A stretch of 44,881 nt of DNA from Escherichia phage SM_A2. The position numbers and the translations under genes were made by a program. A model generated the notes under the pieces. That model was not told the origin of the DNA. It saw only the letters and a program-made list of their open reading frames with translations, and made no database searches. Where the stretch lies: sequence record PP920552.1. One strand, 5' to 3'. Positions 25,588-44,881 of this stretch are shown here, one piece after another (position 1 is the first letter of the stretch; every line of letters begins with the position of its first letter).

Positions 25588-25617
25588 ACTATAGTGCAAC
25601 CAACCTATTGGTTGCAA
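25588..25617 (-). promoter_or_regulatory. sigma70-like promoter with palindromic TGCAACCAA-N4-TTGGTTGCA motif (leftward)
   Basis: Minus-strand reading: TTGCAA (-35, fwd 25612-25617), 18-nt spacer, TATAGT (-10, fwd 25588-25593); overlaps the stop of gene 25605-26075; followed by hairpin GGGGGC-AATACA-GCCCCC (25561-25578). Confidence 0.5.
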
Positions 25618-26075
25618 GTGAATTTTGCAACGTTTATTGCGTAAATTTTCGGGACCAAATCACCACACGCCCGACGAATTGCCGCGATGTTCTTCTCGCA
25701 ATCTTCAATGATGACCAGTTCCGACACGTCCGCATAGCAGACCATTTTGAACACGGCGCACGCCTTAAACTCTGGCGGCGGGGTGTCGTCCAGCATGTGG
25801 CGCATAAACAACCGGCCTGTCGGGAATACCTCCAGTTGTTCGGCGGTGGTTTCCCAGCATTCCCGCTGCCGGTTGGTCAGATACGCGATTTCGAAGCCTT
25901 GCTCTTTGTACATGGTCAGCAGCGGCAGCATATCCATGTTCAGATCTTCGCGGACGTGCGCCTTGTGCCACTTCGCCCAAAAGGTGGATTTAGTTTTTAT
26001 GCCCGGCACAAGGTCGGCGCGCGCATCGCTTGATCCATTAATAACGCCATCCAGATCACAAATCAGTAATTTCAT
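25605..26075 (-). CDS. HAD-superfamily phosphatase (putative nucleotidase)
   Basis: N-terminal motif LICDLDGVI (DxDG[TV], HAD motif I); 156 aa; downstream motifs consistent with HAD fold. Confidence 0.6.
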   Translation of the reverse strand: MKLLICDLDGVINGSSDARADLVPGIKTKSTFWAKWHKAHVREDLNMDMLPLLTMYKEQGFEIAYLTNRQRECWETTAEQLEVFPTGRLFMRHMLDDTPPPEFKACAVFKMVCYADVSELVIIEDCEKNIAAIRRACGDLVPKIYAINVAKFTCNQ

Positions 26076-26276: not shown

Positions 26277-26762
26277 TCAACGATTAAGATATTCACGTAG
26301 CTCACTCTCGCTCATTATTTCAATTTGTGCGCCGCCGGTGGGCGGCGCTTCGTCAAAGATTATCAATTGCTGGCACTTGTTATTGCTCGGCCCGACTTCA
26401 CCGGTGACTGCATGTATGAATCGGACCCGCCAGTCCAGAAGAATTATCAGGTTTGCAGTCTTCCTGGCCAACCGCGCCCACTTTGTCGACGTGTCCTGAT
26501 TCAGTAGCATGACGGTCCGACGTCCATGCGCTGCGCACTTGACCCACGGCAGCGGATCGGAATACGGCGGGTTGCACCACTTCCACCCTTTCAACTCTGA
26601 CCAGTCCGCATCGAGCGCGCTGTGCTCTGCCGTGAAGTAACGCGGTAGAAGGTGGTTGTCATCGCTCGCCGCCATGTCATATCGGAATCGGTACTTCCGG
26701 CGCAGCGGTTTAAATAAAGCTGGCGGCGTGCGCCAGCTATCCTTCTGTTCACTCTTCAGCAT
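26277..26762 (-). CDS. DNA N6-adenine methyltransferase (phage Dam-type)
   Basis: Motifs WRTPPALF near the N-terminus, DMAASDDNH, and catalytic NPPY (WCNPPYSD); 161 aa, typical of small phage Dam-family enzymes. Confidence 0.8.
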   Translation of the reverse strand: MLKSEQKDSWRTPPALFKPLRRKYRFRYDMAASDDNHLLPRYFTAEHSALDADWSELKGWKWCNPPYSDPLPWVKCAAHGRRTVMLLNQDTSTKWARLARKTANLIILLDWRVRFIHAVTGEVGPSNNKCQQLIIFDEAPPTGGAQIEIMSESELREYLNR

Positions 26763-27207
26763 GGCCTGGGTCTATCGCGTATAAAGGGACTTTATTGCCG
26801 GTTTTCATAATGCGCTGGACGCGCTTTGACTCCTCGGCGCTAAGCGGTCGGCAATCGGAGTGGTAGCTACCGTTTGCGCGCCACGCCATAAGCACCAGGT
26901 CTTTCCGGTCGATCTTAGACTGGCGACCTTTGGGGCGCACGTACTCCTCGGCACGTTTGCAATGCTCACGCAAACCATCGGCAGTGATGCGGTTTAGTGC
27001 AACGCTGGTTGTGTATCCGGTGCGCTGCATAATCCCCATCAATTCGAAAAGCAGTTCTAAGCGCTCCTCTAACTCCTTGCGCATCTTTTCCTCGCCTTCA
27101 TAGCTCGCCAGGTAGGTATCCGCCAACGCGTTCGCACGTTCGGCCTGTTCGCGGGCTTCGAGGCATTGCGCGGCCCAGTAATTTTTCTCTTCTTGTAAAA
27201 TTTTCAT
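26749..27207 (-). CDS. hypothetical protein
   Basis: 152 aa; ATG 27207 with GGAGA RBS; charged coiled-coil-like N-terminus; no motif recognised. Confidence 0.5.
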   Translation of the reverse strand: MKILQEEKNYWAAQCLEAREQAERANALADTYLASYEGEEKMRKELEERLELLFELMGIMQRTGYTTSVALNRITADGLREHCKRAEEYVRPKGRQSKIDRKDLVLMAWRANGSYHSDCRPLSAEESKRVQRIMKTGNKVPLYAIDPGHAEE

Positions 27208-42417: not shown

Positions 42418-42659
42418 TTATCTCCGTCCTGTTGTTTGTTATCATAGGGGCTTCGTCCCTGTTTAACGTGTATGCGCCGTCCGTTCAGGATGGCTTCTTC
42501 GGTCGGGTGTTATATCTGCTAACAGCAATGACCTGTATTGTCGGGCTGTTGCAAACAGGAGACGTATCAGATACCACCTGGACCGCGTTAATCTGGCTGT
42601 TTGCATTGCGCACCCTGCGTAATGCTGTTTTGAATGGGGTAAAACATGCGATTCAGTGA
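42414..42659 (+). CDS. second holin / antiholin-like membrane protein
   Basis: 81 aa, 2-3 hydrophobic helices; ATGA-coupled to the holin; overlaps the endolysin start. Confidence 0.5.
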   Translation: MIISVLLFVIIGASSLFNVYAPSVQDGFFGRVLYLLTAMTCIVGLLQTGDVSDTTWTALIWLFALRTLRNAVLNGVKHAIQ

Positions 42660-43137
42660 TAACGGTCTACGATTTACGGCAGCCTGGGAGACTTTCAGCC
42701 CGGTGCCGTACTTCGCGACCAAGAAAGAGCAGGCCCGCGGCCTGTACACCTGGGGTTATGGGCACACCGGCACTAATCCGCCTCGAAGCATTACCCGTGC
42801 TGAAGCTCTGGAACTACTCAAGCGAGATGTGGCGTATGCCGAGGACTGGGTGAACAAATACGCACATCCGAGCATTAACCAGGCGCAATTCGACGCGCTG
42901 GTGGACCTGGTAATCAATGCCGGTCCTGGTCCGATCGTGCCGGACAACATTGCCAACGACTTTGACGATGCGGTGCGACTGGGAGACTGGGCGAAGGTCC
43001 GTGCTACTCTGCCGCAGTTCCGCAAGCAAGGCGGGTCGGTGCTCTTAGGTCTGGTGCGCCGTGCAATCGGCAGACAGGCGTTGTTTGATGGTAAGCAGTG
43101 GGACGTTGCCGAGAAAATCGGGCGAAACGCCGCATAA
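42646..43137 (+). CDS. endolysin (phage lysozyme-type)
   Basis: 163 aa; N-terminal catalytic-region pattern (WETF ... GLYTWGYGHTG) typical of T4/P21-type lysozymes; no signal sequence seen. Confidence 0.85.
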   Translation: MRFSDNGLRFTAAWETFSPVPYFATKKEQARGLYTWGYGHTGTNPPRSITRAEALELLKRDVAYAEDWVNKYAHPSINQAQFDALVDLVINAGPGPIVPDNIANDFDDAVRLGDWAKVRATLPQFRKQGGSVLLGLVRRAIGRQALFDGKQWDVAEKIGRNAA

Positions 43138-43152
43138 TACGAGGAACACAGT

Positions 43153-43320
43153 ATGTTAAAAAGCATTCTTGATCATAACGCCGACGCACTTGCTGCACTG
43201 GCTAAAACAGAAGATCCGGGCGCGCGAGCTATCATCGCGGATACTATCAACCACGCTGGGGTCTTCGATGCGAAGCTGCCAAGCCCACCCCCACCGGAAG
43301 ACCCAGTCCCCGCCGCGTAA
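43153..43320 (+). CDS. hypothetical small protein
   Basis: 55 aa ORF after the endolysin, Pro-rich C-terminus; below the ORF-track size cut-off. Confidence 0.3.
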   Translation: MLKSILDHNADALAALAKTEDPGARAIIADTINHAGVFDAKLPSPPPPEDPVPAA

Positions 43321-43327
43321 ACTATCA

Positions 43328-43351
43328 AGCCCGGTTAATTCCGGGCTTTTT
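43328..43351 (+). terminator. intrinsic terminator after lysis cassette
   Basis: AGCCCGG-TTAATT-CCGGGCT hairpin followed by T4-5. Confidence 0.75.
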
Positions 43352-43412
43352 ATTGCTTGACTCGGGACCGTGGTATATTGTCCTCTGACCAATAACCAGG
43401 AAGTTAATTAAT

Positions 43413-44555
43413 ATGCACCCGCAAACTAAAATCACCGACGAGCAATTGATCGCCGAGTTGCAATCCGGCACTACCTCGAAAGATATTGCGAAGAAATACG
43501 GGATTGCCCTACGCAATGTCTATATGCGGAAAGCCCGCCTATCGAAGAAAGGGATTGGACACGGCAACGATGCCGTAATCCGCAAGCGCGTTGCCGATGG
43601 CTTTGGGGTTAAGCGCGTATCGGCCCTGGTGCGCGGCAATGGCGAAGAGGTCATGTCGTGGGTTATTACGGAGCAGGACAAGGAGCGCCAACTCGAAGCT
43701 ATGCGCGCTGTTGTCGCGGGTATGAACAGCGAAATCACACCGGCAGCGCCAGTAAACGCCCCTCCAGTACCGATCCAGGCGCTCGACTTGCTCAACCTGT
43801 ACACCGTGTCAGACTTCCACTTGGGCATGTTGGCATGGGGCGAGGAGACTGGCGAAGACTGGGATATGGCGATCGCCGAAGACCTGTTCTACCGCTGGTT
43901 TGTAGAAGCCTTCGCACGCGCACCAGACGCAGGCACTGCCGTAATTAATATCCTCGGGGATATGGCCCACTTTGATAGCCTCGATGCTGTCACTCCGGCA
44001 AGTGGTCACGTACTGGACGCCGACACCCGCTACCAGAAACTGGTCCGATACATGATTCGCATGGTGCGCAACGTCGTCGAACTGGCGCTGCAAAAACACC
44101 ACAAAGTCAAACTGCTAATCGTCCAGGGAAATCATGACGAGTCGGGTATGATTTGGCTGGCTGAGATGTTCAATACTCTGTACGAGAACGAGCCGCGCGT
44201 CGATGTAGATACGTCACCGGACGTATACAAGATGGTGCAGCACGGTAAGACCACGCTGTTTTTCCACCACGGGCACAAAGCGCGATTCGATGCTATCGAG
44301 CCGGTTATGATTTCTAAATTCAGACAGGCTTTCGGGTCCAGTGAGTATAGCTACGCGCACGTAGGCCACTTGCACCACCAGAAGATTGTAGAATCCCGCA
44401 ACATGATTGTTGAACAGCACCGGACGCTCGCAGCGAAAGACGCCTACGCCAGTCGTGGCGGTTGGATGTCAGGTCGTAGTGCCAACGTCATTACCTACAG
44501 CGCCAACTACGGCGAAGTTGCACGCTTAACCATTAGCCCGGAAATGTTGAAATGA
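43413..44555 (+). CDS. calcineurin-like metallophosphoesterase with N-terminal HTH-like domain
   Basis: 380 aa; phosphoesterase motifs VSDFHLG (D-x-H), ILGDMAHFD (GD-x-x-D), QGNHDE (GNH[DE]) plus later His pairs; N-terminal 40 aa HTH-like. Confidence 0.7.
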   Translation: MHPQTKITDEQLIAELQSGTTSKDIAKKYGIALRNVYMRKARLSKKGIGHGNDAVIRKRVADGFGVKRVSALVRGNGEEVMSWVITEQDKERQLEAMRAVVAGMNSEITPAAPVNAPPVPIQALDLLNLYTVSDFHLGMLAWGEETGEDWDMAIAEDLFYRWFVEAFARAPDAGTAVINILGDMAHFDSLDAVTPASGHVLDADTRYQKLVRYMIRMVRNVVELALQKHHKVKLLIVQGNHDESGMIWLAEMFNTLYENEPRVDVDTSPDVYKMVQHGKTTLFFHHGHKARFDAIEPVMISKFRQAFGSSEYSYAHVGHLHHQKIVESRNMIVEQHRTLAAKDAYASRGGWMSGRSANVITYSANYGEVARLTISPEMLK

Positions 44556-44764
44556 TTAGACAAATATTCATGAGCACGCAGGCCGATCGCCTGAAAGAAC
44601 TACGCAAACAACTCGAAGGCTTGCGCCGATTCGAACGAACGGCAGCGGCGGTAGGCATGTCTATCAGCGAACGGATCGAGATACTATCGCAAATACGCTA
44701 CACAGAAGGCGCGATAAGAGAAGTACAAAGCATGTTAACCCGATACTACGGGCGTGACGTTTAA
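44552..44764 (+). CDS. hypothetical protein
   Basis: 70 aa; ATGA-coupled to the phosphoesterase; coiled-coil-like; followed by a T-rich putative terminator (about 44768-44797). Confidence 0.45.
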   Translation: MIRQIFMSTQADRLKELRKQLEGLRRFERTAAAVGMSISERIEILSQIRYTEGAIREVQSMLTRYYGRDV

Positions 44765-44881
44765 CCCTCCCAGCCTGCCGATTTGGTGGGCTTTTTTGTG
44801 CCTGTTATAATCCCAATTAGATGGCAGGGCCGTCTCCTATGTTGCCGATGGTCGGCGCATATGCACAAAAGGGCTTATATC

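Follow-up and report, generated by a model that had tools for sequence, protein, structure and literature searches.

A PHROG 704 protein joining a helix-turn-helix to a metallophosphoesterase domain in a Dhillonvirus-type coliphage: a candidate DNA-tethered nuclease

Background

What does a phage gain from a protein that appears to couple a DNA-binding fold to a metal-dependent phosphoesterase, and on what substrate would such a protein act? The question is raised by an open reading frame (ORF) at positions 43413-44555 of Escherichia phage SM_A2 [GenBank:PP920552.1], whose 44,881 bp sequence, hereafter the window, is the complete genome of a Dhillonvirus-type coliphage with the small terminase gene, terS, as its first gene. 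The predicted 380 residue product combines an N-terminal helix-turn-helix (HTH) with a calcineurin-like metallophosphoesterase (MPE) catalytic domain. We show that the ORF is a genuine gene under very strong purifying selection; the gene, its family (PHROG 704) and its two-domain composition are already catalogued, and the window provides one more, ordinary member. The function that we favour, to which we give about an even chance, is that of a DNA-tethered binuclear-metal nuclease whose substrate would be host DNA or DNA ends. Among the more than 2,000 sequenced phages that carry the family are many therapy candidates against E. coli, Salmonella and Klebsiella, and the biochemistry and role of so widespread and strongly selected a protein make a worthwhile, if not a surprising, question.

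Results and discussion

A strongly constrained member of PHROG 704

The 380 residue protein matches the PHROG 704 profile with an E-value of 6.9e-161, its residues 5-380 corresponding to profile positions 2-390 of 390, and is 99.5% identical to Bas83_0070 of Escherichia phage Haito_Bas83, which is labelled 'DNA repair exonuclease'. At the nucleotide level the right end of the window is 90-93% identical to some 150 deposited phages. dN/dS ratios of the gene, calculated against 13 orthologues differing at 7-13% of nucleotides, ranged between 0.013 and 0.056, and when the gene was divided the N-terminal 118 residues had a ratio of 0.061 and the remainder one of 0.019. Together with the profile match, these ratios place conservation of the ORF far beyond chance. 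A minus-strand ORF (43520-43828, 102 aa) was taken as spurious because it lies wholly inside this strongly constrained plus-strand gene.

An exhaustive search of 1.84 billion cluster representatives, in which relatives were counted as 50%-identity clusters, returned 4,627 relatives with E-values below 1e-3, of which 1,126 had values below 1e-30; most relatives were 370-420 aa long. The family occurs in 2,062 phage records. Members occur in Dhillonvirus, Jerseyvirus, Kagunavirus and Drexlerviridae (T1-like phages, including Klebsiella Webervirus), as well as in a lambdoid Pseudomonas phage, Vibrio phages, roseophages, Flavobacterium phages and Campylobacter myoviruses. Their annotations conflict: the usual label is the one given above, and others are phosphoesterase, transcriptional regulator, oxidoreductase, DNA polymerase small subunit, hypothetical protein, 'calcineurin-like phosphoesterase', 'HTH luxR-type domain-containing protein' and 'sigma-70 region 4 domain protein'. 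PADLOC and NCBIfam scans of the protein gave no informative match and matched no known anti-defence family, and a PDB search with the single protein sequence returned spurious repeat-protein matches only.

Two deposited records encountered among these coliphages (OQ221563.1, PQ843332.1) call for caution in their own right. The sequence named 'Acinetobacter phage NJ01' is 91% identical to the coliphages, making its host label questionable, and Escherichia phage P-GXEC-L2P5, at 88.6 kb, has the region in several positions, a sign that its assembly may be concatenated or duplicated.

The metal-binding site is intact

Motif conservation was scored on alignments of 78-150 diverse relatives, 31-50% identical to the query. 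The MPE motif order DxH / GD / GNH(D/E) / H / GHxH is present and all seven metal ligands are accounted for. Motif I (D134-x-H136) is essentially invariant, with D134 kept in 149/149 sequences and H136 in 148/149; in motif II (G182-D183-M-A-H186-F-D188) D183 is kept in 149/149 and H186 in 144/149; in motif III (G239-N240-H241-D242) N240 and H241 are each kept in 148/148; motif IV (H285-H286-G-H288) retains H286 in 148/148; and motif V (G318-H319-L-H321) retains H319 in 137/145 and H321 in 144/145. H186 and H241 are candidate catalytic histidines. Of the 144 representatives that cover all ligand positions, 143 keep the full set, so that careful alignment brought no loss of metal ligands to light. 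The original prediction, made from the letters of the window, had proposed a calcineurin-like motif set of just this kind; its D-x-H, GNH[DE] and later histidines stand, whereas motif II, which it had read as GD-x-x-D, is in fact GD-x-x-H(-x-D), as in Mre11, in place of the GD-x-x-D(R) of PPP phosphatases.

Pfam models recognize this domain poorly. The query scores 20.0 bits against Metallophos (cut-off 21.5) and 22.0 bits against Metallophos_2 (cut-off 27), both below the gathering threshold, and among relatives 21 of 78 match a metallophos model at E < 0.01. The family is a divergent MPE subfamily without a dedicated Pfam model.

Predicted fold and N-terminal module

An AlphaFold2 model built on a 78-sequence alignment (mean pLDDT 93.2, pTM 0.82) divides the protein into three parts: three helices (residues 9-45), a hairpin followed by a long helix (60-107), and an alpha/beta core (121-380). 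The core is modelled as the four-layer alpha/beta sandwich of the MPE superfamily. Its top structural matches are nucleases, and the model does not have a PPP-like fold, which bears on the choice between a PPP phosphatase and an Mre11-like fold that the original prediction had left to structure prediction.

The first part is modelled as a three-helix bundle with helix-turn-helix geometry. The query itself scores low against Pfam HTH models (GerE 14.8 bits with a cut-off of 23.5, HTH_28 12 bits), and relatives score well: Sigma70_r4_2 is matched by 13 members (1.5e-9), GerE by 6 (2.4e-8), HTH_1 by 15 and HTH_8 by 12. From this resemblance the segment probably binds DNA. The roughly 40-aa N-terminal HTH-like segment proposed earlier therefore corresponds to a predicted domain, and what had been overlooked is the second part, a beta-hairpin (64-88) and helix (90-106) specific to the family, in which G77 is kept in 133/143 and W83 in 137/147 representatives. 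This element is possibly a cap or a substrate-binding element on the catalytic domain. At least 100 residues precede the DxH motif in 143 of 148 representatives (median 141).

A toxic homologue selected against by a defence system

Bas01_0050 of phage AugustePiccard (Bas01) belongs to the same PHROG and is 44% identical to the window protein over 374 aa (E 2e-105). In spontaneous mutants with which the T1-like phage Bas1 escapes the reverse-transcriptase defence DRT7/UG10, missense or frameshift changes are found in Bas01_0050, which the authors describe as 'a nucleic acid-targeting phosphoesterase'; expressed from pBAD it is toxic in E. coli, and co-expression with DRT7 was therefore not possible (bioRxiv 10.64898/2026.02.16.706125). 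In the same study lambda escaped DRT7 through gam mutations or loss of Gam, and because lambda evades the same system via gam, DRT7 escape points to DNA-end metabolism. For at least one family member, Bas01_0050, laboratory growth thus does not require the gene, and its product harms the host when present alone and is tied to DNA-end metabolism. The dispensability is echoed in nature by the T1-like phage phiJLA23, whose genome is smaller (43 kb) and whose copy has lost the catalytic domain: the gene is cut to a remnant encoding the N-terminal 110 aa (L210:2489-2821) that is still labelled 'DNA repair exonuclease'.

Other leads from the literature were less productive. A phage Tn-seq preprint covers no Dhillonvirus. 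The calcineurin proteins Metis and PUA-Cal-HAD were considered as relatives and set aside, as they are defence-side proteins of a different family. T1 itself may degrade host DNA; a literature search on a T1 host-DNA-degradation gene found none. Retron-Eco7 escapers of the Dhillonvirus 'phage98' map to a gene that is left unnamed and has no assigned function; the product of this gene, which might or might not be the PHROG 704 homologue, sets off the retron (PMC12640716).

A cassette of variable position

In the window the gene lies downstream of the endolysin gene (42646-43137), a 55-aa ORF and a terminator-like hairpin (Table 1), and its contiguity with terS is seen in records spanning the junction. 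The original prediction had it after the lysis terminator, which is so, and just before terS, which is not strictly so, as a 70-aa ORF and a second terminator lie between the two. From this adjacency, given a circularly permuted genome, it had also suggested a role in DNA-end processing or host signalling, an argument that finds no support once other phages are considered, where the position differs. In the T1-like phages Stevie and Bas01 the PHROG 704 gene precedes the holin gene; in Pseudomonas phage MPK9 it closes a nin-like region ahead of the holin gene; in the Jersey/Kaguna-like phages SE2, MA12 and K1ind2 it sits in a small unit opposite the tail genes; and in the Campylobacter myovirus F370 it directly follows a T4 gp30-like DNA ligase gene. 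Because positions vary in this way, adjacency to terS in Dhillonviruses is best seen as an accident of that lineage and not as a functional link, and the gene, with its own promoter and terminators, behaves as a mobile accessory cassette. In a metagenomic phage (L016:4001-5128), a 34%-identical member has the head scaffolding gene on one side and the major head gene on the other, an unusual spot for a nuclease-like gene.

One recurrent neighbour bears on function. In K1ind2, some 18 related viral loci and Klebsiella phage SBP (L011:3616-4110), the PHROG 704 gene is overlapped by 4 bp by a downstream gene for a HAD PNKP-type 3'-phosphatase (Pfam HAD_PNKP, E 7e-20 and 2e-21), and in K1ind2 a P-loop ORF comes after the HAD gene (L009:3622-4661). 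In about 25 sister loci the HAD slot is occupied by an unrelated 76-aa ORF. Among these Kagunavirus and Jedunavirus loci (L150-L190) the cassette 3' of the PHROG 704 gene has been swapped between lineages.

The core replication and recombination genes of the window (polymerase, helicase-primase, a 476-aa exonuclease and a Gp2.5-like annealing protein) lie elsewhere. Two minus-strand genes carry doubtful names in the near-identical Bas83 record: the 'polynucleotide kinase' (25605-26075) has only a weak match to HAD phosphatases (Acid_phosphat_B, 23.5 bits), and the 152-aa 'DNA ligase' (26749-27207) has no Pfam match.

The transcription unit

The sequence TG(G/A)TATATT, an extended -10 element, precedes the gene in all 16 Dhillonvirus loci compared, at a spacing to the ATG of 33 nt in 14 and of 29 and 35 nt in the other two, and is kept although the DNA farther upstream is unrelated among them; the TGGTATATT-type motif occurs only once in the window. 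A simple sigma-70 scan did not call it because it lacks a good -35. We infer from its conservation that it serves as the promoter of the gene. In phage NHEP3 the deposited coding sequence (L001:2938-4119) begins 39 nt 5' of the conserved ATG, for a product of 393 rather than 380 aa, and this start, which spans the conserved promoter element, is probably mis-called. The terminator-like hairpin farther upstream is present in only some Dhillonvirus relatives, the upstream sequence being unrelated in others.

Around the -10 element lies a palindrome of the form GGACCGTGG-N8-CCACGGTCC, whose arms pair at 9/9 positions in 4 of the 16 relatives and at 8/9 in 5 of 16; in the window pairing has fallen to 6/9 through decay of the right arm. 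An RNA-hairpin reading was dropped: variants break the pairing without compensatory changes, for which reason the palindrome has the look of an operator for a protein rather than of a structure in RNA, and Rfam gave no match. The recognition helix of the HTH is identical across all 16 genomes, and co-variation between HTH sequence and palindrome state is therefore uninformative on autoregulation. A scan of viral contigs with the 14-mer ATTAATATGCACCC returned mainly chance matches.

The 70-aa ORF that follows was considered as an obligate partner and rejected on account of a presence/absence polymorphism: among Dhillonvirus loci with sufficient flank it is present in 7/11 and absent from 4/11, and it is therefore an optional passenger. 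It is unrelated to the 76-aa ORF found in the same slot of Jersey-like phages, and Pfam and PADLOC scans of it gave no match. Two further features of the region stand outside the unit. Just past its terminator and about 70 nt before the wrap-around to terS (position 1), a perfect extended -10 element, TGTTATAAT (44803-44811), is the sole TGnTATAAT in the genome and likely the promoter of the packaging/head operon. Upstream, the 55-aa ORF (43153-43320; PHROG 11068, function unknown) is kept in most Dhillonviruses and is replaced or highly diverged (38% identity) in three loci.

Table 1. Coordinates of the gene, its predicted domains and its flanking features in the window
Feature	Position	Strand	Details
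HTH-metallophosphoesterase ORF	43413..44555	+	380 aa, ATG start; PHROG 704, T1 gp16-like, usual label 'DNA repair exonuclease'
HTH DNA-binding domain (predicted)	43437..43547	+	residues 9-45, three helices; LuxR / sigma-70 region 4 / resolvase type
Family-specific beta-hairpin and helix	43590..43733	+	residues 60-107; strands 64-73 and 79-88; helix 90-106
Calcineurin-like metallophosphoesterase catalytic domain	43773..44552	+	residues 121-380; predicted ligands D134, H136, D183, N240, H286, H319, H321
Terminator-like hairpin	43327..43348	+	AAGCCCGG-TTAATT-CCGGGCTT then T run; ends lysis unit, upstream boundary of gene
Imperfect palindrome, candidate operator	43365..43390		GGACCGTGG-N8-CCTCTGACC around -10 element; decayed in window
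Extended -10 promoter element (putative)	43371..43379	+	TGGTATATT; hexamer TATATT at 43374-43379; 33 nt 5' of ATG
Ribosome-binding site	43398..43403	+	AGGAAG; 9-nt spacer to ATG; conserved in relatives
70-aa helical ORF	44552..44764	+	PHROG 20931 (function unknown); ATG overlaps main-gene stop (ATGA)
Terminator-like hairpin	44772..44792	+	ends two-gene unit, ahead of terS promoter

A proposed DNA-tethered nuclease and its alternatives

In the mechanism that we favour, the HTH, and perhaps also the hairpin-helix, would hold a core resembling those of Mre11, SbcD and the PolD subunit DP1 on DNA, where a Mn2+/Mg2+ pair bound by the seven ligands, aided by H186 and H241, would hydrolyse phosphodiester bonds. 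The likeliest target would be intracellular DNA during infection, whether the chromosome of the host or exposed ends. Such a host-takeover or DNA-processing nuclease would harm the cell, and some defence systems would respond to it. Its gene would form a self-contained accessory cassette of extended -10 promoter, gene and terminator that moves among the module boundaries of many siphovirus lineages, with a function standing apart from the core replication and recombination machinery. Support comes from the full-length profile match, the intact ligands, the Mre11-type motifs, the resemblance of the HTH to DNA-binding domains, the low dN/dS and the findings on Bas01_0050 and phiJLA23, and also from precedents for phage proteins of MPE type, or of HTH-plus-nuclease design, that degrade host DNA, namely A10ZJ24 gp48 and T5 A1 (see below).

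This proposal must be tempered by several observations. Profile homology to SbcD was not seen, and the protein has neither a capping domain nor a Rad50-like partner. Nuclease activity is a prediction across PHROG 704, and the toxicity of Bas01_0050 is no proof of DNA cleavage. OLD-escape mutations of the Dhillonvirus HK578 fall in other genes. Translational coupling to the HAD PNKP-type 3'-phosphatase, present at about 18 of some 56 more distant loci (L150-L205) and in Klebsiella phage SBP, could mean healing of ends and not degradation. Finally, very strong purifying selection is odd for a merely dispensable gene; a gene so strongly selected, and yet dispensable in the laboratory, must therefore matter in nature in ways that laboratory plating hides.

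That coupling is the starting point of an end-healing alternative, in which the MPE would be a 2',3'-cyclic phosphodiesterase or 3'-phosphatase acting on broken RNA or DNA ends together with the HAD phosphatase, a P-loop kinase and a ligase, as a split version of bacterial Pnkp (which also has an MPE domain) that repairs damage by host anticodon nucleases or DNA nickases. The overlapping HAD gene, the P-loop ORF next to it in K1ind2 and the ligase gene preceding the F370 member are all consistent with it, as are the HAD-like 'polynucleotide kinase' and putative ligase elsewhere in the window. We nevertheless consider it unlikely: the HAD neighbour is replaced by the 76-aa ORF in the sister loci and is not adjacent in Dhillonviruses, T1-like phages or MPK9, toxicity is unexpected of a repair enzyme, and the nearest folds are those of nucleases, whereas the MPE domain of Pnkp falls in the lambda-phosphatase-like clade. 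A HAD PNKP domain alone, moreover, removes 3'-phosphates (as in T4 Pnkp), which we count against a need for the MPE. A moron-like cassette in a variable position is also typical of counter-defence genes, and the protein might instead be a small-molecule phosphodiesterase that degrades nucleotides or cyclic (oligo)nucleotide messengers, serving nucleotide scavenging or acting against CBASS, Pycsar or Thoeris. An HTH kept across nearly the whole family has no obvious role in an enzyme of soluble nucleotides, however; the top structural matches are nucleases; neither PADLOC nor any known anti-defence family is matched; and loss of the homologue aids escape from defence where loss of a counter-defence gene should sensitise the phage, leaving this explanation distinctly unlikely.

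The same HTH, being of the type found in transcription regulators, raises the question of whether the protein is primarily a transcription factor, a sigma-r4/LuxR-like autorepressor or late-gene regulator whose MPE domain is a sensor or secondary. The labels chosen by some depositors point the same way, the gene is often directly 5' of lysis or late operons, and in many Dhillonviruses its own -10 element lies within a perfect 9-bp inverted repeat. Yet the catalytic residues are invariant and the catalytic part has the lower dN/dS, Campylobacter homologues have no HTH, and, with an identical recognition helix in all 16 genomes, the window and 5 others show a decayed palindrome. The palindrome motif is found nowhere else in the genome, and for that reason no regulon is apparent; we regard a primarily regulatory role as improbable. 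A PPP-type Ser/Thr (or Tyr) protein phosphatase that rewires host signalling, like lambda NinI, shares the superfamily motifs, and the nin-like location of the MPK9 gene corresponds to that of NinI in lambda; motif II is GDMAH and not GDxxDRG, however, motif III is GNHD and not GNHE, and Vibrio phage pYD21-A has a separate Ser/Thr phosphatase gene besides its PHROG 704 gene, which together make this reading very improbable. We give the smallest chance, a really slight one, to a packaging helper that processes genome ends together with terminase. It would explain adjacency to terS in Dhillonviruses and a place within the head module of one distant phage, and is countered by a position not kept in most lineages, by the dispensability of the homologue and its loss in phiJLA23, and by the terminator and separate promoter between the gene and terS.

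Returning to the DNA-tethered nuclease, a wider and more speculative version would make PHROG 704 as a whole the hitherto unassigned nucleases with which T1-like, Dhillon-, Jersey- and Kaguna-like siphoviruses attack host DNA and generate DNA ends. These proteins would be remotely related to T5 A1, having the HTH-plus-MPE design in common with it, would be leashed by an operator at their own extended -10 promoter and would act as a general trigger of DNA-damage-sensing defences such as DRT7. We offer it tentatively, as something that may be true but that we would sooner doubt than assume. In a more unusual variant the enzyme would join the HAD phosphatase and P-loop kinase of Kagunaviruses as the three proteins of a split pathway for healing ends. 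Should an HTH-guided nuclease be established, the conflicting annotations would be unified, the toxicity of the homologue and the DRT7 sensitivity would be explained, and there would be a handle on how common siphoviruses treat host DNA.

Comparison with known nucleases and phosphatases

The window protein shares the Mre11-type GDxxH and GNHD motifs and is only 14-17% identical to Mre11/SbcD and to the 3'-5' exonuclease PolD DP1. Alignment of the family profile with E. coli SbcD by hhalign gave a probability of 2.9%, with only GNHD aligned, and a profile search of the PDB found T. maritima SbcD at E 0.47. Mre11 and SbcD have a C-terminal capping domain that confers DNA specificity, whereas the window protein lacks it and bears the N-terminal HTH and hairpin-helix instead; no gene for a Rad50/SbcC-type ABC ATPase was found beside the PHROG 704 gene in the window or in nine relatives examined. 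Because profile-level homology, capping domain and Rad50/SbcC partner are all absent, the protein is not a bona fide Mre11/SbcD orthologue. With lambda NinI and the PPP Ser/Thr phosphatases it has the superfamily and the metal-binding scheme in common, and lacks their GDxxDRG and GNHE signatures and PPP-like fold.

Mycobacteriophage A10ZJ24 gp48 is a toxic protein with phosphodiesterase activity that damages the genomic DNA of the host (PMC12287305). It and Bxb1 gp47, annotated as an integrase recombination directionality factor, represent the cluster A mycobacteriophage MPEs (PHROG 221), which have all five MPE motifs, III to V of them aligning with PHROG 704; they are shorter (~255 aa), have no HTH module, form a separate PHROG and reach a probability of only 5% by hhalign against PHROG 704.

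T5 A1 (PHROG 1745, pre-early) is described as having an N-terminal DNA-binding domain and a C-terminal endonuclease domain; it is responsible for host-DNA degradation and triggers retron Eco2 and OLD. Its design, a DNA-binding part followed by a nuclease-like part, resembles that of the window protein; the invariant residues of its family fall in MPE motif order (D303-x-H305, H338-D339, N395-H396, H475, H500-x-H502), some members of that family have Pfam HTH domains, and mutations in A1 and in PHROG 704 alike have been selected in phages escaping defence systems. The window protein does not match the PHROG 1745 profile, and the two are separate PHROGs. Full-length profiles of PHROG 704 and T5 A1 align by hhalign with a probability of 20%, rising to 45.6% (E 2e-4, 212 columns) for the catalytic halves only, where the alignment takes in motifs III to V and a C-terminal 'ITY' strand; homology to T5 A1 is only suggested by this. 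A1 has 556 aa and is required for second-step DNA transfer, whereas the phage can do without the PHROG 704 homologue.

Within PHROG 704 itself the likeness is complete. Bas83_0070 and Bas01_0050 have the same architecture of HTH, hairpin-helix and MPE domain as the window protein and the same invariant ligands, and nothing essential sets the window apart from other loci of the family, in which it is distinguished by a decayed promoter palindrome and by the presence of the optional 70-aa ORF.

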